In this document: positions 91-40,049 of the stretch, one piece after another
Layout: each line of letters opens with the position of its first letter
Position numbering within the stretch: position 1 is the stretch's first letter
Virus record (IMG/VR): IMGVR_UViG_3300006046_000004
Coordinates: 1-40,642 of that record
Source: a virus
Strand: one strand, 5' to 3'
Length of the DNA stretch: 40,642 nucleotides
The notes under the pieces: model-generated
Told to the model about the DNA's origin: nothing
The model's database searches: none
Seen by the model: only the letters and a program-made list of their open reading frames with translations
Program-made: the position numbers and the translations under genes

Positions 91-1822
91 GCAGCAGATC
101 ATCGCCGAGACGATCTTCAACCGCGCGGCTGCGCGCGGCCAGCCGCTCGAGCAAGTCACTCGGCAATACACCGGCCCGCAATCGACCGGCTATTACCCGG
201 CCTCGACCTTCGGGCGCGGGCAGATCAGCGAAGACGCGCTGACGCCGGTGCTGCGCGGCTCCGACATCGGCGGCGGCGATATCGGCTTCTCGCCGACCGG
301 CAACGCCTCGGCAGATGTCGCAGCTAATGGCATCCGCACCGGCCGTTACAATGCCTCCGGGCGACTTCCCGGCAGTGGCGAAACCTTCGTGCAGCAGGAG
401 CCGCCGGGACAACTGCAGCGGCTTGCAGCCACGCGCGTGCCCGCCAATTCCGCAGATGTCCAGGCGGCTCCCCCGGACGTCCCGCAAGTGGTCGCATCCC
501 TAAACCCGGCCGGTGCCCAAAGCGACACCGCGCCTGCGCCCCAGGGCTCGGCGCTGCCGGACCCGACCGCGATTGCGGCGGCACCCGAGGCCGTGCGCAA
601 TGGCGCGCTAACGCCGCCCGCAGCAGCAACCACGGGTCCGGCGCTGCCCCCTGATCCAACGACCATCGCGAAGGCACCGGGGCCTGGCCAGTTGCCGCCT
701 AACATGGCCGGCGCGACCCTGCCGCCACCAGTTGTGCCATACGATCCCGGCCCGGAGCCAAAGCGTACGCCGCCCACGCAATTCATGCAGAGGCTGGAAC
801 GCGCCGCCCAAGACCCCACGCTCAGCCCGGCACTGCGCCAGTCAGCGCACGATAAATACAGCGAACTATTCAAGGCGCAGCACGAGGAAGACCTCAACCG
901 CTGGAAAATCTGGAAACAGGAGGAGATCAAATCCAGGGACCCGGCGACGCGGCTTGCCTTGCAAAGAAGCAGTTACGACGTTGAGAAAGAAAAACGCGCG
1001 CTGGAGGGCGAAGGGTTCTTCGCATTGTCGCCGGAAGAAACAGCGCGGCTTGGTACACTGCCTGCAGGCGTCACCGCTTATAAGGATCGCTTTGGAAATC
1101 TGAAGACGATCCAAGGGCCGACGACAGTCAGCATCGATCAGGCCGGGGAGAAAGAAGAAAGCAAGGTCACGGGCAGGCTGGCGGCCGAGCGCGCCGGCAA
1201 GATGATGGAAAGCGCCAATACGGCCGGGACGACGTTGTATACGCTGAACCGCGCCGATGCCCTGCTCAACCAAATCAAGACTGACGCTTTGGCCCCAACA
1301 CGAATGAGCGTAGGGGCCATGGGACGGGCGCTTGGGGTATCGGACGAGGTGCTTGCAAGATTAAATCTCGATCCGAAGTCCATCGGCTCAGCGCAAGCAT
1401 TCAACGCTATCGTCGGCGACCTTGTGATTGGAAAGATTGGTGCCGGCGGCTTCCCCTCCAACAACTTCTCGAACACAGACCGCACGTTCTTGACCGACAC
1501 CGTTGCCAAGCTCGGGGACGATCCCGAAAGCAATCGCATCAAGCTCGGCGCTGCCAAGATGGTGGCGCATCGCGACCTGGAGAAAGCGCAAGAGTGGGCC
1601 GCCTTCCGGCGCGACAACCCCAACAAGAGCTTCGTTGATTTCGAGCATAGCTGGAATGAAAAGGTCAGCAACAACGATCTGTCCGGACAGTTGCGACAGC
1701 AGGCCGAGGCTTTAATCGCAACTGCAAAGGGCGGAGGTGACGACGCAGCGCGGGAATGGCTCAAAAACAACCCCAATGACCCGCGAGCTGGCGCCATCCG
1801 GAAAAGGTTGGAGGGACGGTGA
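1..1822 (+). CDS. 3' part of a junction-spanning virion (internal/ejection-type) protein gene; the complete gene is 40050..40552 plus 1..1822 (774 aa). It carries a SleB/CwlJ-like cell-wall hydrolase motif and an Ala/Pro-rich linker
   Basis: Codon phase from ATG 40050 continues into the track ORF 20..1822 across the 90-bp overlap. IRTIAKGESNDPREQQIIAETIFNRAAARG resembles the Hydrolase_2 (SleB) signature. The gene sits in the internal-virion-protein slot upstream of the tail fibre. Confidence 0.6.
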   Translation, partial: NPQLAELQDNPVLADRIRTIAKGESNDPREQQIIAETIFNRAAARGQPLEQVTRQYTGPQSTGYYPASTFGRGQISEDALTPVLRGSDIGGGDIGFSPTGNASADVAANGIRTGRYNASGRLPGSGETFVQQEPPGQLQRLAATRVPANSADVQAAPPDVPQVVASLNPAGAQSDTAPAPQGSALPDPTAIAAAPEAVRNGALTPPAAATTGPALPPDPTTIAKAPGPGQLPPNMAGATLPPPVVPYDPGPEPKRTPPTQFMQRLERAAQDPTLSPALRQSAHDKYSELFKAQHEEDLNRWKIWKQEEIKSRDPATRLALQRSSYDVEKEKRALEGEGFFALSPEETARLGTLPAGVTAYKDRFGNLKTIQGPTTVSIDQAGEKEESKVTGRLAAERAGKMMESANTAGTTLYTLNRADALLNQIKTDALAPTRMSVGAMGRALGVSDEVLARLNLDPKSIGSAQAFNAIVGDLVIGKIGAGGFPSNNFSNTDRTFLTDTVAKLGDDPESNRIKLGAAKMVAHRDLEKAQEWAAFRRDNPNKSFVDFEHSWNEKVSNNDLSGQLRQQAEALIATAKGGGDDAAREWLKNNPNDPRAGAIRKRLEGR

Positions 1823-3210
1823 TGGCTGAACAAAAGCCGTTCGACCCGGACGCTTATCTCGCATCGTCGCCTAAACAAGAGTTTAACCCGGATAAATATC
1901 TGGCCGGTGGCGAGCAGCCGGAGCCGACCCCAACCTATCGCGGCTCCGTTCTGCCTTTCACCACCTACAGCGACAAGAGCGTGCGGTTTGAGCCACTGAC
2001 TTCCGGCCTGACAGGCGGGTTGTACCAGGGTTACAAGCAGGCCAACGATTACGTTAACCGTGTTGTCAGCGGCGAAGCGTCCAGCGATGTCAGCGACCCG
2101 CGCGTGATGGGCGAGGTCTTCAACATGGCAACGCTGGGGCTTGGCACCAACCCATTCGTGCGTTCCGGCGACCGCGCCATTGCGGGTGTGAAGGGCGTAA
2201 AGCAAGACCTGTCGCTCGCACGGACACCGACCGTCCAGGAATTAAAGGATGTCGGTGGCAAGCAAATCAGCGATGTCGTCGATCTGCCGGTGAAGTATAA
2301 TCCGCAGCATATTCCGATACTGGCCGACCAGATCGAGCAGAACCTGCTCAAGGAAGGCGTGCTTCCCAAAGATGCCCCAGGAATTTACGAGACGCTCCGT
2401 TACATGCGGCAGTCCACCCCGCCCCCCGGCTCCACTGTCCACGTCGAGCCTGCCAACCTCATCTCACTCCGCAAGAACATCGCCAACAAGTTCGGCAAGG
2501 CTGACGAGAACCAGAAGGGCGTGGGGGTGGCGTTTGAGCACCTCAACAACTTCATTGAGAACCCTCCTGCGGGCGCTGTTCTGTCTGGACCCGCTGCCGA
2601 AGTCGGAACTCGCTACGCCACCGGCCGCGCCAACTATGCCGCCGGCATGCGCGGTGAAGAACTCGCCGACATTAGCCGCACCGCAGACTTACGAGCTGCC
2701 GCCGCCAACTCAGGACAAAATCTCGATAACTCAGTGCGCGGACGTGTCGCCACAGCAGTCCTCGACGATGCGCGAATGCGAGGTTTCGATCCCGCGGAAA
2801 AAGCCGCGCTAGAAGCCATCCCCACCGGCACGCCGGTGCGCAATTTCATGCGCAATTGGGGCAACCGTCTCGGCGGCGGCGGCGGCTTAGGCCAAGGCGT
2901 AACATCAGGGCTGGCGGCTGCCGGGGCCAATTTCCTGGGTGCAGGCCCGGCCGTCACAGGGGCGGCGGCGGTGATTGCCCCCGGCGTCGGGGCCTACCTC
3001 AAAAACCAAGCCGCCAAGGGCACTGTGGGTGCGCTCGAAGCGGTCCAGGAGGCCACGCAGCGCCGCTCGCCGCTGTTCCTGGAGAAACTGCCCGGCCAAG
3101 ATCTGGTGCCATCCACGCCTGGCCGCGACGCCATGGCGCGCGCCTTGCTGCAGATGCAATTGCGTCGGCAACAGTCGCAAGTGCCAGACTATGATCCAAA
3201 CCTCACATAG
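1822..3210 (+). CDS. Virion-associated protein of unknown function (internal virion protein candidate, 462 aa)
   Basis: Long ORF with high GC3. GGAGGG lies 6 nt upstream of ATG 1822, which overlaps the upstream TGA (TGATG); a GTG at 1819 is an alternative start. There is a Gly-rich hydrophobic segment near the C-terminus. Confidence 0.6.
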   Translation: MAEQKPFDPDAYLASSPKQEFNPDKYLAGGEQPEPTPTYRGSVLPFTTYSDKSVRFEPLTSGLTGGLYQGYKQANDYVNRVVSGEASSDVSDPRVMGEVFNMATLGLGTNPFVRSGDRAIAGVKGVKQDLSLARTPTVQELKDVGGKQISDVVDLPVKYNPQHIPILADQIEQNLLKEGVLPKDAPGIYETLRYMRQSTPPPGSTVHVEPANLISLRKNIANKFGKADENQKGVGVAFEHLNNFIENPPAGAVLSGPAAEVGTRYATGRANYAAGMRGEELADISRTADLRAAAANSGQNLDNSVRGRVATAVLDDARMRGFDPAEKAALEAIPTGTPVRNFMRNWGNRLGGGGGLGQGVTSGLAAAGANFLGAGPAVTGAAAVIAPGVGAYLKNQAAKGTVGALEAVQEATQRRSPLFLEKLPGQDLVPSTPGRDAMARALLQMQLRRQQSQVPDYDPNLT

Positions 3211-3243
3211 GAGGCCACATTGCCCCGCAACGGCTCAGGCGTC
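3207..3243 (+). pseudogene. Relic copy of the tail-fibre translation start (stop+SD TAGGAGG, 5-nt spacer, TTG, codons for PRNGSGV)
   Basis: 3207-3243 aligns position-for-position with 3878-3914, the true tail-fibre start. The peptide (L/I)PRNGSGV is the same but almost every synonymous site differs (ccc/cct, cgc/agg, tca/agt, ggc/ggg, gtc/gtg). The frame then decays and overlaps the HNH gene. Confidence 0.6.
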
Positions 3244-3302
3244 TCTGCCTTGCAATGGATCAGGAATAGGCGGACCATCGGACCTCCAACAGGAGGTCAA
3301 AA

Positions 3303-3881
3303 ATGGCAGTCACGAACAAGCTGCGAAACATATGGTACGGGCTCAAACAGCGTTGCAATAATCCAAACTTCAAACAGTGGAAGGACTACGGCGGTCGTGG
3401 CATCAAAGTTCGCTTCAAGTCATTCGATGAATTTTTCGCTGCGATAGGAGAGAGACCTCCTGGCATGGTGATCGACCGCATTGACAATGACGGCGACTAC
3501 GCTCGCGGCAATGTGCGATGGACGACGCGCGCTGTATCAATGGCCAATCGCAGAAATGCGGTCTTTGTAAAAATCAAAGGCAAGAAATATCGCGCCATGG
3601 ACCTTGCAAAGAAGTCTGGCATCAAGACCGACACTGTCGTGGAACGAGCCGAAAGAGGCTTGTCGCTTGCCAAAGTTTTATCGCCTGAGAAAATATATAA
3701 TCTCTCCGGGTTGGCGCTAGGTGGAGAGGCCTCTGGTGCAAAGAAGCGTGCTCTTGCGCATTGCTGCAATGGCCACGAGTACACACCAGAAAACACACTC
3801 GTCACGAAAGAGGGCTGGCGACGATGTCGGGCATGCCATCGATTGAAGATGCAACGTCGCTACGCTGCGGCACGGAAATAG
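3303..3881 (+). CDS. HNH homing-endonuclease-like protein (192 aa)
   Basis: The C-terminal CCNGHEYTPENTLVTKEGWRRCRACH fits the C-x2-GH...N...C-x2-C-H beta-beta-alpha-Me (HNH) layout. The N-terminal YGGRGIKV...IDRIDNDGDYARGNVRWTT is a repeat typical of phage HNH/NUMOD-type DNA-binding modules. The gene is visibly AT-richer than its flanks and is inserted between two structural genes. Confidence 0.65.
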   Translation: MAVTNKLRNIWYGLKQRCNNPNFKQWKDYGGRGIKVRFKSFDEFFAAIGERPPGMVIDRIDNDGDYARGNVRWTTRAVSMANRRNAVFVKIKGKKYRAMDLAKKSGIKTDTVVERAERGLSLAKVLSPEKIYNLSGLALGGEASGAKKRALAHCCNGHEYTPENTLVTKEGWRRCRACHRLKMQRRYAAARK

Positions 3882-3911
3882 GAGGTTAAAATTCCTAGGA
3901 ACGGCAGTGGG

Positions 3912-5681
3912 GTGTACAGTAGGCCGCCGGGTACGGACGGAATTCCTAACCTGACCATCGAGTCCACCAAATACAACGCCTACGTCGGCGACGTGGAGCA
4001 GGACCTCAACACGCCGCGGCCGATCGTGGCCGGCGGCACCGGCGCCACCACGGCCCGCGATGCCATGATCGCGCTGGGCGGCGAACTCGCCAACCAGGTG
4101 GTCACCAATTACGACAGTTTCCCGTTCGTTTCCGGCTCATTCATTTCCGACAACGCCGCCACCGCCAGCCCGCTCGACGGGTATTATTTCTCCGGCATTG
4201 CCACCGCCTACAACAACAGTTTCACCGTCCTGCATGCCTACGAGATCAACACCGGCGAGGAATTTGTGCGGGTGAAGACCACGGCCGGCTGGGGCCCGTG
4301 GACCGGCCCGCGGCTGGGCGGTGATGTCAACATCGCCAGCACCACGCCATCGACCGCATCGAACACCGGCGCGCTGACGGTCAACGGCGGGCTCGGCGTC
4401 GGGCTCGACATCTTTGCCGGCGGCAACATCCACGCCGGCACCGGCACGGTCTATCTCACCCCGACGCAGTATCTGTTCCACAACGGCACCGCGTTCAGCT
4501 TCTCCACCACGCCAGTGCAGATCACCTCGGCGGTGGACTCGACCTCGCCGACCACCGGAGCATTGACGATCGCCGGCGGACTCGGTGTCGTTGACAATGT
4601 CGTGGTCGGCGGCGACATCCACGGCGGCGACCTATTCGCCGTGCATCCGGCCTCGGCCACCACCGGGAAGCTCTATCTCGGCAACTCGAATGCCAAGTAC
4701 CTGGAGACTACTGGCTCGTTCTATCGCTTCGTCGCCGACCCGGTCGTGGTTGCATCGACAGCGTCGGCGGTGTCGCCATCCAACGCCGCGTTGATCGTCG
4801 CCGGCGGCATTGGCGTCGGTAACGACATCTCCACCGGCGGTGCCATCCGCTGCGCCAGCACCATCACGCTCGACAACGGCGGCGCCGACAGCCCGGAGTT
4901 GGTGCTCAAATCGGCCGGCTTCCCGGCCTTCAACATCGACAACTTCAATGGCACGCTGCGGTTTTTCGACACCGCCGTGCGGATGAGCATCTCGTCCAGC
5001 AATGGCGCCGTCAGCATCCCCGGTGGCATCACTGGCGACCTCCACGTTACCGGCAATGGCTATCTACAGGCGGTCGGCACCAGCGATGCCTATCAGGTCT
5101 TTGCCGACGAGACCGCCGCCACCAAGGGCTATGTCGGTTGGTTCCGCTCCAGCAACGGCGTGCGGCTGTTTAACGCCACTGCCGGCGATGGCATCATCAT
5201 CGATCCGGCCGCCAAGATTTATCTCGGCAAGGGAATATTCGGTAAAGCCGGAACCGCCGGTGCCTACGATGTCAATGCCCACAACTTCTATTGGACCGGC
5301 TCGGCCGCGCAGGCGTGGATCGACATCACCAACCTCGGCAACATCACGATCACTTGTGACTACCGCATCAAGAAGGACGTGGCCCCGCTCCGCAGCACCT
5401 GGGAGGTCGTCAAGCGCCTGCGCCCGATCACCTACACGCAGCGGGAATACACCCCGCCTGGTGCCACGCAGCCGCTGTTCGTCAATGACGACACTTGGCG
5501 CTGGGGCTTTGTCGCGCACGAACTGCAGGACACGCTGCTGCCGAGCGCGGCCAGTGGCTGGAAGGACAGTCCCACTGACATCCAGTCGCCCAACCTGCTG
5601 GCGATCGTGGCCGCGCTGACACGGGCCCTCCAAGAGGCCATGGAACGCATCGAGGCGCTGGAGGCGGCGCGTGCTCGATAA
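3912..5681 (+). CDS. Tail fibre protein with a C-terminal intramolecular-chaperone (peptidase S74-like) domain
   Basis: Conserved fibre N-terminus PRNGSGVYSRPPGTDG. The in-frame codons 3891-3911 encode IPRNGSG, so the true start may be ATT 3891, 5 nt after AGGAGG. Three to four internal repeats of type S.TGAL.V.GG.GV. The C-terminal CDYRIKKDV...WGFVAHELQ...LLAIVAALTRALQEAMERIEALE matches the S74 layout. Confidence 0.85.
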   Translation: MYSRPPGTDGIPNLTIESTKYNAYVGDVEQDLNTPRPIVAGGTGATTARDAMIALGGELANQVVTNYDSFPFVSGSFISDNAATASPLDGYYFSGIATAYNNSFTVLHAYEINTGEEFVRVKTTAGWGPWTGPRLGGDVNIASTTPSTASNTGALTVNGGLGVGLDIFAGGNIHAGTGTVYLTPTQYLFHNGTAFSFSTTPVQITSAVDSTSPTTGALTIAGGLGVVDNVVVGGDIHGGDLFAVHPASATTGKLYLGNSNAKYLETTGSFYRFVADPVVVASTASAVSPSNAALIVAGGIGVGNDISTGGAIRCASTITLDNGGADSPELVLKSAGFPAFNIDNFNGTLRFFDTAVRMSISSSNGAVSIPGGITGDLHVTGNGYLQAVGTSDAYQVFADETAATKGYVGWFRSSNGVRLFNATAGDGIIIDPAAKIYLGKGIFGKAGTAGAYDVNAHNFYWTGSAAQAWIDITNLGNITITCDYRIKKDVAPLRSTWEVVKRLRPITYTQREYTPPGATQPLFVNDDTWRWGFVAHELQDTLLPSAASGWKDSPTDIQSPNLLAIVAALTRALQEAMERIEALEAARAR

Positions 5682-6348
5682 GCCGACAGTAGAGTTGCCG
5701 CGGACATGGCGCGCACTGGCGGAGGACGTGACCGTGGTTGACGACCTGCTGCCGCCAAACACGCAGGCGCTGGTGCGAGACTTCCTACAACGGCCAGGCT
5801 GGCAGTTCGGCTGGAAGTCAGCGCGCAAGACCGATGTCTATTCGTTCTGGCACAAGCACTTTGCCGGGCATAGAAACTCCAAGAACGAACCGAAATACGA
5901 ATGCTCCGAAGAACTCTCGAAGAGCGCGCCGCTGGCGCACTGGTTCTGGGTGAACCTCAATAAGGTGGTGTTCCGCAACACGCACGCGCTCTATCGCTGC
6001 TATGCCAATGCGCAAACCTACGGCAGCGATGGCACCGTGCATACCGACAGCAAATCAGATCGCAGCTACACATGCGTGTATTACGCAAACGCCGACTGGC
6101 AGCCCAATTGGGCCGGCGAAACCGTGATATTCACGCCCGACAAATCTGACATCATCACCAGCATCTACCCGCGCCCGAACCGGCTGGCGATCTTTCGCGG
6201 AAACATGCCGCACGTCGCCCGCGGCGTCTCGCGCACCTGCCCGGTGCTGCGCGTTGTCCTCGCCTTCAAATCAGAGTTGCCCGATGATCCAGGACCAGCA
6301 CCGACACTTCCTGACGATCCAGGCGAACGCCAACAAGATCCGCCATAG
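5671..6348 (+). CDS. 2OG-Fe(II) oxygenase (prolyl-4-hydroxylase-like fold)
   Basis: HxD...H facial triad (TVHTDS ... NMPHVARGV) and a distal RVVLAFK strand. The start overlaps the tail-fibre stop. Confidence 0.7.
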   Translation: MLDKPTVELPRTWRALAEDVTVVDDLLPPNTQALVRDFLQRPGWQFGWKSARKTDVYSFWHKHFAGHRNSKNEPKYECSEELSKSAPLAHWFWVNLNKVVFRNTHALYRCYANAQTYGSDGTVHTDSKSDRSYTCVYYANADWQPNWAGETVIFTPDKSDIITSIYPRPNRLAIFRGNMPHVARGVSRTCPVLRVVLAFKSELPDDPGPAPTLPDDPGERQQDPP

Positions 6349-6823
6349 CGGCCGCAGCCTCTACGACCATCTACTTGGCACCCACGACCTGCTGCAGGCG
6401 TGGCGCAACCCGCCGGAAATCTGTACGGCCGGCCTGTTCCACTCGATCTACGGCACGAGGCATTTCCGCCACAAGACCTGGCCGCTCGAGGAGCGCAACG
6501 CCATCGTGCAACTGATCGGCCCCGAGGCCGAATTGTTGGTCTACATCTTCTGCGTCACGGCGCGCCCACGCGAACTGATCGAGACGACCGGCCGCGTGTT
6601 CAATACGCACAAACACGAGCTGCTGATGCTGTCGCCGGCCACGCTGGCGGCCTTGCTGGAGATCGAGGCGGCCAATCTGCTGGAGCAGGGCAGCCACGTC
6701 GGCAAGTGGCTCAAGGTGCTGCGCACCAAGGACATCAGCGACGCCGCCAAGCGCGCCATCGCGCAGCGCATGGTGGACACCGGGCACACCGCTACATCGT
6801 CAGCAGCACCAGCACCGCAATAA
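6284..6823 (+). CDS. HD-like / DUF6817-like protein (partner of the oxygenase)
   Basis: The motif run HSGRSLYDHLLGTHDLLQAW...CTAGLFHSIYGTRHF recalls the DUF6817/HD-like family. ATG 6284 is preferred over the track start at 6254. It overlaps the oxygenase 3' end by 65 nt in another frame. Confidence 0.45.
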   Translation: MIQDQHRHFLTIQANANKIRHSGRSLYDHLLGTHDLLQAWRNPPEICTAGLFHSIYGTRHFRHKTWPLEERNAIVQLIGPEAELLVYIFCVTARPRELIETTGRVFNTHKHELLMLSPATLAALLEIEAANLLEQGSHVGKWLKVLRTKDISDAAKRAIAQRMVDTGHTATSSAAPAPQ

Positions 6824-6920
6824 GCGCGATCGCATTGCCGAGCAGGCAGAGAAACGCCAGTGCAATCAGCATGGGGTGCAGGTTGAACATGCGTTCGATC
6901 TGCGTGGGCCATCCGCTCAT
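6792..6920 (-). CDS. Small single-pass membrane protein (42 aa)
   Basis: Hand translation gives MSGWPTQIERMFNLHPMLIALAFLCLLGNAIALIAVLVLLTM. Its ATG overlaps the TGA of the upstream ORF (ATGA). It is below the track size cut-off. Confidence 0.4.
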   Translation of the reverse strand: MSGWPTQIERMFNLHPMLIALAFLCLLGNAIALIAVLVLLTM

Positions 6921-7144
6921 GCCGGCCAGCCCGCCGTCACGGCACCATTGAACGTCGTCGGCACCAATGACGGCACCACCGCGCCGGCCTCAGTCACGAA
7001 CACGACAGGGATGCCGCCGCCTGCACCGGCTGTTTTGGTCACGGCAATTCCGCGGCCATTGGCGGCCTCGGTTACGGGCAAACCTCCGGTGCCGGCTGCC
7101 ACCGGCAACCCACCGCTGGTGACCGTGACGACCGCCAAGCCCAT
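6917..7144 (-). CDS. Gly/Val/Thr-rich small protein (75 aa), unknown function
   Basis: The internal ATG at 7144 lies 2 nt after the stop of 7147..7794. GC3 is high in this frame. It is coupled by ATGA to the next small ORF. Confidence 0.4.
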   Translation of the reverse strand: MGLAVVTVTSGGLPVAAGTGGLPVTEAANGRGIAVTKTAGAGGGIPVVFVTEAGAVVPSLVPTTFNGAVTAGWPA

Positions 7145-7146
7145 GA

Positions 7147-7794
7147 TCAGTACGGCCGCACCGGCGGCGGCTCGCTGAACACGTTCTGCTGCGGCTGCTG
7201 CGGCTGCTGCGGGTACGGCCCCTGCCACGGCGGCTGGCCCTGCTGGCCCGGCTGATCGGTCAGTTGCGGCTGCTCCTGCTGGCCCGGCTGCCCGCCTTGC
7301 TGCGACTGCCGCTCTAACCGCTGGTTCTCACCCTCACCGATCTCCAGCGGCGGCAGCACGTTGCTGCCAGGCGGCTCATTGATCGAGGGGTAACCCTCCA
7401 GCGCACTCGGCATCGGATTAACGGATATCGCCGGTGCATTCGGATTGACACCGCGGTGGCCAGGGTTGCCGGTGATGTCCTCAAGGTCGCGCGTTGACTT
7501 GTGCGGGTTGCGCTCGCCCGCGACCTCGCCGCTCGGCCGGTTGGCCGGGTCAAGCCCCGGCTGCGCGACATTGGCGTATTCCGCCTTGATCATGCCGGCG
7601 ACCTGCTCCATGTCGACGCCCTCGCCGGCGCCGCCCGTATTCTGCGCAATGGCGTTGCGCTCCTGCTGCTGCTGCATGCGCTCGTTGCGCTGCAGCGGCT
7701 GCTGCCACGGCCCGGCCTGGCGCTGGAGTTCGCCCGGCTGCATCCCGGCCTGTTGGCTCTGGCTCGGCTGGTTCTGATTCCACTGGTCGCTCAT
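7147..7794 (-). CDS. Gln/Pro-rich low-complexity protein (215 aa), unknown function
   Basis: AGGAGA SD upstream of ATG 7794. Q/P-rich termini (QQGGQPGQQEQPQ...PQQPQQPQQ) flank a more ordinary core. Confidence 0.6.
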   Translation of the reverse strand: MSDQWNQNQPSQSQQAGMQPGELQRQAGPWQQPLQRNERMQQQQERNAIAQNTGGAGEGVDMEQVAGMIKAEYANVAQPGLDPANRPSGEVAGERNPHKSTRDLEDITGNPGHRGVNPNAPAISVNPMPSALEGYPSINEPPGSNVLPPLEIGEGENQRLERQSQQGGQPGQQEQPQLTDQPGQQGQPPWQGPYPQQPQQPQQNVFSEPPPVRPY

Positions 7795-38630: not shown

Positions 38631-40049
38631 ATGAGCTTTTTATTTGGTGATCCGCCAACCCCTCCCGATCCGCGGCTGACGGCGGGCGCGCAGACCTCCA
38701 CCAACATCGGCACCGCGGTCGCGAATGCGCGGCTCAACAATGTCAACCAAGTCACGCCGACCGGCAGCCTGACCTACACCGAGACCGGCAACAATGTATT
38801 CACCGATCCGGCCACGGGCCAGACCTACAACATCCCCGCGTTCACCCAGACTTCATCACTGACGCCGGCCGAGCAGGCAATCCAGGACCAGAACCAGCGG
38901 GCTCGCACCAATCTGGCGACGACTGGTGCCGAGCAAAGCGCCAGCCTTGGCCGGTTGCTGGGCACTCCACTTGACGTGAGCGGGGCGCCGGCGGCCGGCA
39001 GCCCTTCAATGCTCAGCGGCGCTCCGCAGACTTCGTTTGCCGACACCGGCACGCAACAGGGCGGCCTCGGCGATGCCGGCGCGCTGACGCGCAGCTATGG
39101 GCCGGCCGATGATTTCTCCGCCGATCGTGGCCGCGTCGAGCAGGCGCTGTACGGCCGGCTCAATCCGCAGCTCGGGCTGGAGCGGCAGCACATCGAGCAG
39201 ACCCTGGCTGACCAGGGCATCCGCTACGGCTCGCGGGCCTATCAAAATGCGATGGACGCCTACAACCGACAGGCCAATGACGCGCGGCTGGGCGTGACGG
39301 CGGCCAGCGGTGCTGAGCAGCAGCGCCTGATGCAGATGGCGCAGCAGCAGGCCCAGTTCCAGAACGAAGCGCAGAACCAAGCCTATACGCAGCTGCTCGG
39401 CCGCGGCCAGTTCGGCAACGCCGCGCAGCAGCAGGCAACGGCGCAGGCGGCCACGCGCGGGCAGTTCGCCAATGCCGCCGAGGCGCAAAACTTCGCCCAA
39501 CAGCAGGCGATGCTGAACGCGCAGAACGCCGCGAGGGGGCAATATTTCACGGAGCAGTACGCCAACCGGCAGGAGCCCATCAACGAGGTTTCTGCGCTGA
39601 CATCAGGCGGCCAGGTCTCGCGCCCGCAGTTCGGCGCGACCAACCAGACCAACATCCCGACCACCGACATCGCGAGCTTGATCAACCAAAATTTCAACCA
39701 GAACCTCGACATCTTCAAAACCCAGTCGGCCAACACCAGCGCCTTGCTGGGCGGCATCCTTGGCGCCGGCGGCAAGATCGGCGCGGCATACGCCGGGGCG
39801 CCATCCGACCGCCGCATCAAAGAGAACATCAGCAAGATGGGCTCGGTGTTCGCGGCCGACCCGCAGGGCGACCGCCACAAGCTGCCGATCTATCAATACT
39901 CGTTCAAAGCCGATCCGGCCTCGCGCCGTCATGTCGGCCCGATGGCACAGGACGTGGAGAAATTCGACTCCGGAGCCGTGGCCGAGATCGGCGGCATCAA
40001 GCATTTGGACCGACGCCGCGTCATGGGCGCGATCTTGAGGGCGAGCTAA
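38631..40049 (+). CDS. Gln-rich virion protein with a C-terminal peptidase S74-like intramolecular chaperone domain (472 aa)
   Basis: C-terminal PSDRRIKENISKMGSVF...LPIYQYSFK...HVGPMAQDVEKFDSGAV matches the S74 signature S-D-x-R-x-K ... GfiAQev. The central region is QQ/AQ-rich. Confidence 0.65.
   Translation: MSFLFGDPPTPPDPRLTAGAQTSTNIGTAVANARLNNVNQVTPTGSLTYTETGNNVFTDPATGQTYNIPAFTQTSSLTPAEQAIQDQNQRARTNLATTGAEQSASLGRLLGTPLDVSGAPAAGSPSMLSGAPQTSFADTGTQQGGLGDAGALTRSYGPADDFSADRGRVEQALYGRLNPQLGLERQHIEQTLADQGIRYGSRAYQNAMDAYNRQANDARLGVTAASGAEQQRLMQMAQQQAQFQNEAQNQAYTQLLGRGQFGNAAQQQATAQAATRGQFANAAEAQNFAQQQAMLNAQNAARGQYFTEQYANRQEPINEVSALTSGGQVSRPQFGATNQTNIPTTDIASLINQNFNQNLDIFKTQSANTSALLGGILGAGGKIGAAYAGAPSDRRIKENISKMGSVFAADPQGDRHKLPIYQYSFKADPASRRHVGPMAQDVEKFDSGAVAEIGGIKHLDRRRVMGAILRAS

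Follow-up and report, generated by a model that had tools for sequence, protein, structure and literature searches.

The virus sequence analysed here (IMG/VR record IMGVR_UViG_3300006046_000004) is a metagenome contig of 40,642 bp, referred to below as the window, and carries a gene for an HNH endonuclease between two differently spelled copies of the 5′ end of its tail-fibre gene. All features described lie on the given (+) strand. With a probability of about 0.8, the region ~3244–3950 is a mobile, freestanding HNH-type homing endonuclease cassette that replaced the 5′ end of its target gene, having entered the fibre gene after codon 8 of the resident copy. The element has a defined anatomy which recurs in other phages, it is present or absent at one site, it includes a tract of foreign composition, and the fibre codons that follow its unusual ATT start codon are under purifying selection. 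From these sequence comparisons we infer cleavage of the fibre start, the position of the cut, homing, self-immunity and initiation at AUU.

The left copy (3207–3243) begins with A3207 and consists of a TAG stop codon (3208–3210), a Shine–Dalgarno (SD) sequence GGAGG (3210–3214), the spacer CCACA, a TTG codon (3220–3222) and the codons CCC CGC AAC GGC TCA GGC GTC. The right copy (3878–3914) is composed of A3878, TAG (3879–3881), GGAGG (3881–3885), the spacer TTAAA, ATT (3891–3893) and CCT AGG AAC GGC AGT GGG GTG. The layout is common to both: a stop codon overlapping the SD, five nucleotides (nt), a start codon and codons for PRNGSGV. The TAG of the left copy terminates the open reading frame (ORF) at 1819–3210, that of the right copy the HNH ORF at 3303–3881. 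An earlier note on this DNA had aligned the two 37-nt stretches, pointed out the shared peptide with synonymous alternatives at five of seven codons, and placed the HNH gene exactly between them. A base-by-base comparison confirmed the alignment: 24 of the 37 nt are identical, the longest exact run is 8 nt, and the synonymous pairs are CCC/CCT, CGC/AGG, TCA/AGT, GGC/GGG and GTC/GTG. The direct repeats flank the HNH gene exactly.

A coincidental resemblance is excluded, because PRNGSG occurs only in these two copies in a six-frame translation of the window, the chance expectation for PRNGSG(V) is 6 × 10−4 per window, none of 300 shuffled sequences contained it, and the stop/SD/spacer/start geometry is common to both copies as well. 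The region was found identical to the window in four independently assembled contigs from different samples, over 1.8–9.9 kb. The ATT codon is therefore not an assembly error.

The upstream gene (1819–3210) belongs to the conserved virion module and encodes a protein of 463 amino acids (aa); its TAG stop (3208–3210) overlaps the SD of the original fibre start. For comparison with phages lacking the endonuclease, the contigs of its four closest homologues on record (L006–L009, 58–78% identity) were used. In each of them, the fibre gene begins 4–36 nt after the upstream gene at an ATG codon with a weak SD, and its product starts with MPRDGSGVYS.PPGT or a close variant. This arrangement shows that ATT 3891 occupies the Met-1 position of the family and that position 3210 originally abutted the fibre start. 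The check suggested in the earlier note, whether the equivalent of 3210 abuts the fibre start in relatives without the HNH gene, thus gave the predicted answer, with one fibre start at this place in L006–L009. A scan of IMG/VR and genomes with an alignment of the fibre N-terminus yielded 93 further loci and, after de-duplication, 72 clusters of sites without the endonuclease (empty sites). The named isolates among these loci are mainly Bradyrhizobium, Mesorhizobium, Rhizobium and other alphaproteobacteria; a few metagenome-assembled genomes carry other labels. These clusters show the arrangement of the close relatives, with the upstream gene next to a single fibre start that normally reads ATG-CCN-CGN-GAC-GGT-TCA. 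ATG is the start codon in 65 of the 72 clusters (two with an extra codon), followed by TTG, GTG and ATT (two each) and ATA (one), and the empty-site consensus reads ATG CCG CGC GAC GGT TCA GG. Among 92 HNH-less loci that were scanned, representing 72 site clusters, none had a second, relic-like copy, so the finding that would have told against an insertion, both copies in relatives without the HNH gene, was not made. Sporadic presence at one homologous site, together with a conserved, constrained target consisting of the fibre N-terminus and its initiation region, is the pattern of a homing endonuclease gene (HEG).

The genomic contexts of related HNH genes were collected from look-ups of homologues and from collection scans. 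Every HNH protein at least 63% identical to that of the window is encoded directly before a fibre N-terminus. None of those with 55% identity or less is encoded there or has a flanking duplication, and the idea that the duplication architecture is a general property of the HNH family was dropped for this reason. Ten cassette lineages were distinguished (the window, L010, L012, L013, L016, L017, L095/096, L199, L228 and L229), which occur in at least three genome contexts. In all ten, the stop codon of the upstream gene is immediately followed by a relic of the fibre 5′ end, with the start codon and codons for PRDG..., and in all ten an SD and a start codon borne by the cassette are located 3′ of the HNH gene. 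The fate of the relic differs between lineages. It forms a short ORF before the HNH SD in L012 (MPRDGGGVFAV and a stop codon) and in L017 and L095 (MPRDGSGSVL and two stop codons), it is an in-frame N-terminal extension of the HNH protein in L013, and it is shortened and fused directly to the HNH gene in L010, L016, L228 and L229. A fibre-type, MPRDG-like N-terminus was found in 11 of the 23 closest HNH cluster representatives. The earlier note had left the choice between a homing endonuclease insertion and a mosaic junction; the insertion is supported by these data, and a single mosaic junction is not, since the structured element recurs in ten lineages.

Two loci without an intact HNH gene bear on decay and loss of the cassette. 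At L199 1384–1482 (IMGVR_UViG_3300031942_000024), a 33-aa ORF joins the relic MPRDGS, via DTVI, to the C-terminal ~25 residues of the HNH protein (TLEGWRNGRACHRLKMHKRYQKV, then a stop codon), and 3′ of this remnant TAGGAG is followed by ATG GCA CCC AGA GAT GGT AGC. By its sequence, L199 is an internally deleted, decayed cassette that keeps both the relic and the cassette start. The locus L203/L204 1480–1540 (IMGVR_UViG_3300048899_000025 / 3300048894_000114) has neither HNH gene nor relic. Its 496-aa upstream gene ends in CAA TAG, directly continued by GAGGCTAAA ATT CCA AGA GAT GGC AGC, which is a cassette-type junction. Probably, L203 is a scar after loss of the HNH gene; alternatively, it might be the ancestral source of the fibre copy in the cassette. 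L199 and L203 would then represent the decay and loss stages of the gain–decay–loss cycle that is usual for HEGs.

The spelling of the two copies indicates which of them is foreign. Among the tabulated lineages, the relic has CGN for Arg3 in eight of eight and TCN for Ser6 in six of six, and the relics of L228 and L229 have CGC; the relics therefore resemble the empty-site consensus in spelling, and they carry resident-type residues. The functional copies have a spelling of their own. ATT CCY AGR GAY GGN AGY is found in L017, L095 and L229 and likewise in the window, where codon 4 is AAC; L012 has the same series except for GGA as codon 6, and L016, L199 and L228 read ATG GCA CCC AGR GAT GGN AGC. 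The complete layout of stop/SD, 5 nt and ATT CCC AGA GAY GG. occurs in L012, L017, L095/096 and L229. Arg3 is encoded by AGR in 8 of 10 functional copies vs 13 of 72 empty sites.

Base composition and divergence delimit the foreign part. The HNH gene has a GC content of ~0.50 (0.56 at third codon positions, GC3), compared with 0.62–0.70 (GC3 0.75–0.83) in its flanks. The low-GC3 tract continues into the first 20 fibre codons (3891–3950), with a GC3 of 0.60 vs 0.9–1.0 for codons 21–70 and 0.83 overall (binomial P = 0.011), and probably marks how far the cassette-derived or co-converted fibre sequence reaches. When the empty L009 was compared with the HNH-bearing L013, codons 1–12 differed at 12 of 36 nt with one amino-acid change, whereas codons 13–54 differed at 6 of 126 nt. 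Foreign composition and a co-conversion tract, both of which are marks of HEGs, are thus seen as a drop in GC and GC3 over ~3244–3950 and as a divergence spike between L013 and L009. Taken together, the resident spelling of the relics, the cassette spelling of the functional copies and this tract indicate a cassette that reaches from after relic codon 8 to about fibre codon 12–20 and contains its own SD, start codon and first codons. This supports the suggestion of the earlier note that the inserted element brought along its own version of the target's 5′ end, as the derived spelling is shared across backgrounds while divergence and low GC3 are confined to the first ~12–20 fibre codons. The fibres of L009 and L013, near-identical over anchor codons 13–54, are unrelated after about codon 57. 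This mosaic boundary just downstream of the HEG site is in line with nucleases marking the boundaries of exchange (PMC10448857).

The fibre gene, read from ATT, spans 596 codons (3891–5681) and encodes an N-terminal anchor domain and a C-terminal Peptidase_S74 chaperone (PF13884). Its putative initiation region (3878–3914) is borne by the cassette and comprises the HNH TAG overlapping the SD at 3881–3885, the TTAAA spacer, ATT 3891 and the recoded codons 2–8. Gene callers start the fibre at GTG 3912 (589 aa), seven codons late. The earlier note had raised the possibility of a start at the rare ATT codon, and this is now strongly supported. Positions 1–75 of the profile phrog_24210 align with the ATT-encoded residue as residue 1, all fibre matches in tblastn align from this residue, and homologues begin with M-P-R-D/N-G-S-G at the position of ATT, within the conserved motif M-P-R-D/N-G-S-G-x-Y. 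In each HNH-bearing lineage with ATT, GGAGG or GGGAGG is located 5 nt upstream and an in-frame stop codon 0–9 nt upstream (9 nt in the window, 0 nt in L012). No other start can therefore cover the conserved PR(D/N)G(S/G)G.Y codons. Among the ATT lineages codons 2–9 differ mostly synonymously, for example by five synonymous and two non-synonymous changes between the window and L017, which means that these codons are under selection as coding sequence. Judged from this pattern of change, the fibre almost certainly starts at ATT 3891 and not at GTG 3912.

ATT occupies the Met-1 position in 5 of 10 HNH-bearing lineages vs 2 of 72 empty-site clusters; Fisher tests on such counts ignore that cassette copies share ancestry. 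The features of known AUU-initiated genes, i.e. AUU at the place of the orthologues' AUG, an SD at functional spacing and conservation in relatives, were found in five HNH-bearing and two HNH-less lineages. Automated gene calls are also too late in L012, by 142 codons (6042 vs ATT 5616), and in L229, by 59 codons (3084 vs 2907). In phages with the cassette or its scar, the receptor-binding proteins of this family probably carry wrong annotations. One of the ATT starts without an HNH gene belongs to a prophage of Rhizobium sp. YTU87027 (L221; NZ_CP098440.1, ~636,319; L221 1501), where AGAGGAG is followed after 8 nt by ATT CCC AGG AAC GGC TCA. No in-frame canonical start was found upstream of this fibre gene and no ORF ends nearby. 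As it resides in a cultured bacterium, this prophage offers a culturable system for the study of ATT initiation.

The HNH gene (3303–3881) encodes a full-length protein of 192 aa that retains all residues invariant in its family. It matched phrog_3377, annotated as 'HNH endonuclease', with E = 5 × 10−37, and further PHROGs, six annotated 'HNH endonuclease' and one 'restriction endonuclease'. The protein has 494 homologues; a single-sequence scan of IMG/VR with it returned one distant locus only. There was no sequence match in Pfam, NCBIfam or PDB, and PF13392 (HNH_3) was touched weakly by only 4 of 51 family members (E ≥ 0.017). An AlphaFold2 model built from 51 homologues (mean predicted local distance difference test score, pLDDT, 90) shows a C-terminal ββα element with strands at residues 165–167 and 173–175 and a helix at 176–191. 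This element carries His158, Asn164 and His179 within the sequence HCCNGH158EYTPEN164...C175RAC178H179, in which C154, G157, H158, N164, C175 and C178 are invariant in the 51 homologues. The model thus displays the ββα fold with His...Asn...His/Asn and Cys pairs that characterises the HNH superfamily. A fold search among the predicted viral structures of BFVD gave 101 matches with E < 10−3, down to 10−13, including named phage HNH and homing endonucleases; the corresponding search of PDB was not significant (best match the HNH nickase 4h9d, E = 0.57).

Between the upstream gene and the HNH gene, the relic (3207–3243: TAGGAGG, CCACA, TTG 3220) keeps codons 2–8 for PRNGSGV in resident-type codons such as CGC and TCA. 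Its TTG lies behind TAGGAGGCCACA, and native TTG starts behind an SD at similar distance occur in the HNH-less L145 (TAGGAGGCAACC) and L169 (GGGAGGCAACT). For this reason, the TTG of the relic probably is the native start of the resident phage and not a decayed ATG. From TTG an open frame of 75 codons (3220–3447) extends across the HNH start, out of frame with the HNH gene. The window and L012 have homologous leaders behind the relic. In L012 the relic ORF ends after 11 codons at TAA, whereas codon 12 in the window is CAA (3253–3255). The frame at 3220–3447 is probably an extended version of the short upstream ORF. Within the cassette leader (3244–3302), both minimum free energy and centroid folds predict a hairpin of 7 bp between GACCUCC (3281–3287) and GGAGGUC (3292–3298), which would occlude the HNH SD (GGAGG, 3292–3296; z = −2.9 for 3244–3312). 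Hairpins overlapping the SD are partially conserved among relatives, being strong in L013, weak in L017 and L095 and missing in L012.

The observations can be joined in the following model. The cassette would be viable because it carries along a replacement for the 5′ end of the gene it interrupts, namely a strong SD overlapping the HNH stop codon, a start codon and the first ~8–20 fibre codons in another synonymous spelling. The relic with its SD, start and codons 1–8 would supply, or have supplied in the past, the translation signals for the HNH gene. The fibre would be translated from ATT 3891 by means of the cassette SD at 5-nt spacing, with perhaps some reinitiation by ribosomes that have terminated at the HNH stop, 9 nt before ATT. 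Upon co-infection, the nuclease would cut the intact fibre start of an HNH-less phage (SD-ATG CCN CGC GAC GGT TCA GGN GTN TAC...) and the break would be repaired from the cassette-bearing genome, with the relic and the upstream gene as left and the fibre from codon 9 onwards as right homology arm. The cassette itself might escape cleavage, as the right half of the site is missing from the relic and the left half is rewritten in the functional copy (ATG-CC gone, CGN changed to AGR, TCN to AGY).

This last step would account for a pattern in the start region. The sequence ATGCC is present at the start of 61 of 72 empty sites, of 7 of 8 tabulated relics and also of the L228 and L229 relics; it is present in 1 of 10 functional starts adjacent to an HNH gene. 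It was lost by three routes: ATT-CC, ATG-GCA-CC with an added Ala, and ATG-GG, which changes Pro2 to Gly. The number of distinct routes is a more meaningful count than the Fisher tests. Among the empty sites, AGR was found in 6 of 11 without ATGCC vs 7 of 61 with ATGCC, and the former would fit with ex-cassette or resistant alleles. It is plausible that the recoding confers resistance to cleavage, as the earlier note had proposed for one of the two copies, and the convergent disruption of ATGCC strengthens this idea. The data would fit with a recognition sequence that spans the initiation codon and the insertion point, so that the relic has no right half-site and the rescue copy a rewritten left half.

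Several observations weigh against the cassette model or limit it. Because the cassette copies share ancestry, the Fisher tests overstate the independence of the counts. The HNH assignment rests on PHROGs, inspection of the motif and fold matches in BFVD, and the protein goes unrecognised by Pfam, NCBIfam and PDB. The N-terminal ~130 residues of the protein occur widely among cultured phages under the annotation 'HNH endonuclease'; the full-length HNH clade and the cassette were found in no cultured phage. The functional copy of L013 retains ATG CCC CGC GAC GGT TCA and its differences cluster at codons 8–12, from which it follows that disruption of ATGCC is not obligatory. Finally, lineage-specific residues are shared by relic and functional copy: Asn4 in the window (3229–3231 and 3900–3902), Gly6 in L012 (4961–4963 and 5631–5633) and Asn7 in L228 (codon 7 of the relic, codon 8 of the fibre). 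A simple scheme in which the relic is resident and the functional copy comes from the donor is therefore insufficient without patchy conversion or later selection. Possibly, the shared residues go back to patchy mismatch repair during homing, to later gene conversion between the repeats or to selection for a fibre that fits the resident tail.

The recoding and the loss of ATG might mainly stabilise the cassette against precise deletion between its direct repeats, by recombination or slippage, and not serve immunity. Since the repeats flank the HNH gene exactly, a precise loss would restore a viable empty site, and loss and decay do happen (L199, L203). The two copies in L013 are identical at 21 of 24 positions, so strong recoding is not needed for viability. 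Stabilisation leaves unexplained, however, why ATG-CC was abolished convergently by three routes, including the costly weak ATT and an added or changed residue, and why the cassette-type spelling is found across backgrounds. As the main cause of the recoding we consider it unlikely; it is compatible with self-immunity.

Another explanation is purely historical: the 5′ end of a distant donor's fibre gene was co-converted together with the HNH gene, and ATT is a neutral or slightly deleterious hitch-hiker. Co-conversion of flanks is known in homing (PMC2988022), synonymous sites are saturated in phages at such divergence, and an ATT lineage could have been the original donor, given that L203 and L221 have ATT starts without an HNH gene. 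What speaks against it is that ATT was kept while the HNH proteins diverged to 55–68% identity, even though ATG is only one T-to-G change away. In the lineages that regained ATG, an extra codon (ATG-GCA-CCC) came with it and ATGCC is still broken. The enrichment of AGR in empty sites without ATGCC (6/11 vs 7/61) is expected of ex-cassette or resistant alleles. An explanation by donor history only is thus rather improbable.

ATT might also be primarily regulatory, either by dosage control sensitive to initiation factor 3 (IF3) or by coupling of the fibre to ribosomes that end at the HNH stop, which would make loss of HNH translation costly. In reporters in E. coli, AUU with an SD reaches ~1/6–1/8 of the activity of AUG, similar to UUG (PMC3592434), and IF3 discriminates against starts of the AUU type (PMC2268962). 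All five HNH-bearing ATT lineages have the stop of the upstream ORF 0–9 nt before ATT and a strong SD at 5 nt. The arrangement is analogous to that in infC, where a stop codon lies 3 nt before AUU and both reinitiation and de novo initiation contribute (PMC3592434). On the other hand, no ORF ends near the ATT of L221, and the HNH-less relatives make do with ATG and weak SDs. Regulation and immunity are compatible, and a primarily regulatory role seems doubtful to us.

That the fibre starts at GTG 3912 and the preceding ATT-PRNGSG codons are untranslated remnants is highly improbable. GTG is a canonical start and is chosen by the automated calls, but no SD lies near it, GGAGG being 26 nt away. 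Moreover, PR(D/N)GSG.Y is conserved family-wide from residue 2 and changes mostly synonymously in the ATT lineages, and a canonical start would be far downstream in other phages: there is no in-frame one for 142 codons in L012, none was called for 59 codons in L229 and none occurs before codon 16 in L017 and L095. Hardly any credit can be given to a one-off illegitimate recombination or assembly chimera, to a self-splicing intron or intein with the relic as 5′ exon, or to a read-through fusion across the HNH stop, even if HNH and fibre are in the same frame in the window with one TAG between them and a complete fibre would, formally, result if relic codon 8 were spliced to fibre codon 9: the structure recurs in ten lineages and is identical in four assemblies, neither a ribozyme core (no Rfam intron match in 3000–4200, E ≤ 1) nor a stop-free, in-frame splicing domain was found, the insert contains 59 + 9 = 68 non-coding nt, the HNH ORF is closed by TAG and read in another frame than the relic, a shortened relic is joined directly to the HNH gene in L010, L016, L228 and L229, L010 and L013 have the HNH gene and the fibre gene in different frames, and L203 and L221 have ATT starts without an HNH gene.

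The closest documented precedent for the cassette are the mobile ORFs (mORFs) of fungal mitochondria, of which it would be the 5′-end, prokaryotic counterpart by analogy. mORFs are known from atp6 of Allomyces macrogynus and from atp6, atp9, cox2 and nad3 of Glomus; they bring in a foreign, mostly synonymously diverged C-terminal segment, and the native C-terminus remains as a relic (PMC3630166). In both cases, an endonuclease ORF is located inside a coding gene, and the foreign, synonymously diverged terminal copy is the expressed one, which purifying selection suggests for the fibre. In both, the native terminus is left adjacent as an unexpressed duplicate; the distribution of mORFs is sporadic and has been attributed to horizontal transfer (PMC3630166). 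The differences are that the 5′ and not the 3′ end is replaced here, so that an SD and a start codon must be supplied, that the nuclease is of the HNH and not the LAGLIDADG or GIY-YIG type, and that the host is a phage, probably of alphaproteobacteria, and not an organelle. In addition, the rescue copy here is without a canonical start codon, and the relic is reused as the translation start of the nuclease. All parts of the mORF anatomy, i.e. nuclease ORF, foreign terminal copy and native relic, are thus present in mirror image at the 5′ end, whereas the family traits (LAGLIDADG/GIY-YIG nuclease, organellar location, 3′ end) are not; the cassette would be analogous in its working and not a member of that family.

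There are further parallels to the seg and mob genes of T-even phages, which are known for 'intronless homing' and marker exclusion (PMC2988022). As in the present case, freestanding nuclease genes are variably present between conserved genes, flanks are co-converted and the genes decay to pseudogenes (PMC2988022). In T4, hairpins that sequester the ribosome-binding site restrain translation of HEGs (PMC2988022), and the similar hairpin predicted in the cassette leader would occlude the HNH SD. The T4 HEGs lie between genes or split genes, and no duplication or re-encoding of a neighbour's 5′ end was found for them; here, the insertion is inside an ORF and comes with a rescue copy. In the literature, we found no phage precedent for a 5′-end duplication flanking a HEG. 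A paper on Xanthomonas phages was considered as such and set aside, since it concerns internal duplications of fibre domains, which is a different matter. With respect to the start codon, the fibre gene resembles infC and pcnB, which have AUU preceded by an SD where orthologues have AUG, in infC with a nearby upstream stop, and which gene callers miss or mis-set (PMC3592434). The gene ebpA of Enterococcus faecalis is likewise reported to be initiated at AUU (PMC4447247). The fibre differs from these in being a structural phage gene in which ATT recurs with a mobile element, and no sign of autoregulation by IF3 was seen.

Synthetic 'home-and-rescue' or 'cleave-and-rescue' drives are engineered Cas9 systems in insects, in which the nuclease targets an essential gene and a recoded, cleavage-resistant rescue is carried along. 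The cassette resembles them in combining a nuclease with a recoded copy of the segment it presumably targets, a parallel that we draw from the sequence. Tentatively, and with the odds rather against it, the cassette may be regarded as a natural 'home-and-rescue' gene drive whose nuclease would recognise the fibre initiation region with its ATG and which would escape self-cutting via ATT and AGR/AGY. In this scenario, fibre translation would be tied to the cassette SD and to ribosomes that end at the HNH stop, making loss or silencing of the HNH gene costly (addiction), and the linked receptor-binding module would be driven into co-infecting phages. If so, the spread of a selfish element would be coupled to the exchange of host range, owing to the location of the cassette at the conserved anchor end of the modular gene.

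The cassette suggests that a homing endonuclease needs neither an intron nor an intein to settle within an essential phage gene if it brings along a re-spelled replacement for the displaced piece, a logic that would parallel that of engineered recoded-rescue drives. It also points to a family of structural phage genes with a conserved ATT start, which matters for the annotation of receptor-binding proteins in metagenomes. The comparison of empty sites, relics and rescue copies leads to a testable prediction of the recognition sequence and of the changes that would confer resistance (ATG-CC, CGN to AGR, TCN to AGY). As it lies where the conserved anchor of the fibre gives way to the variable distal part, the cassette may promote the exchange of host-range modules between phages.

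Some additional observations concern neighbouring and related genes. The upstream 463-aa protein matched no Pfam, PHROG or NCBIfam family and has 152 homologues in metagenomic phage contigs. Its ORF from GTG was absent on exact record look-up, and gene callers start it at an ATG one codon later. A single-sequence scan of IMG/VR with this protein gave no match, nor did a megablast search of 1800–6000 against GenBank phages, where protein-level matches were distant only. In L012, two genes carry the fibre N-terminal anchor (2536–4661 and 5616–7160). The first comprises two ORFs, one of 191 aa at 2536 and one of 372 aa after it; the second is the ATT-started fibre after the HNH gene, the called part of which also has 372 aa. 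The pair may reflect a fibre duplication or a disrupted paralogue. The window encodes a second protein with a C-terminal Peptidase_S74 chaperone (38631–40049, 472 aa), and in relatives this gene is found two genes ahead of the HEG site. It was considered as a paralogous source of the fibre copy and dropped, its N-terminus (MSFLFGDPPTPP...) being unrelated to the PRDGSG anchor. Directly after the fibre, the gene at 5671–6348 has conflicting annotations, with a Pfam match to 2OG-Fe(II) oxygenases (E = 4 × 10−9) and 'DNA endonuclease V' as best PHROG; a similar gene is located elsewhere in the module of L009.

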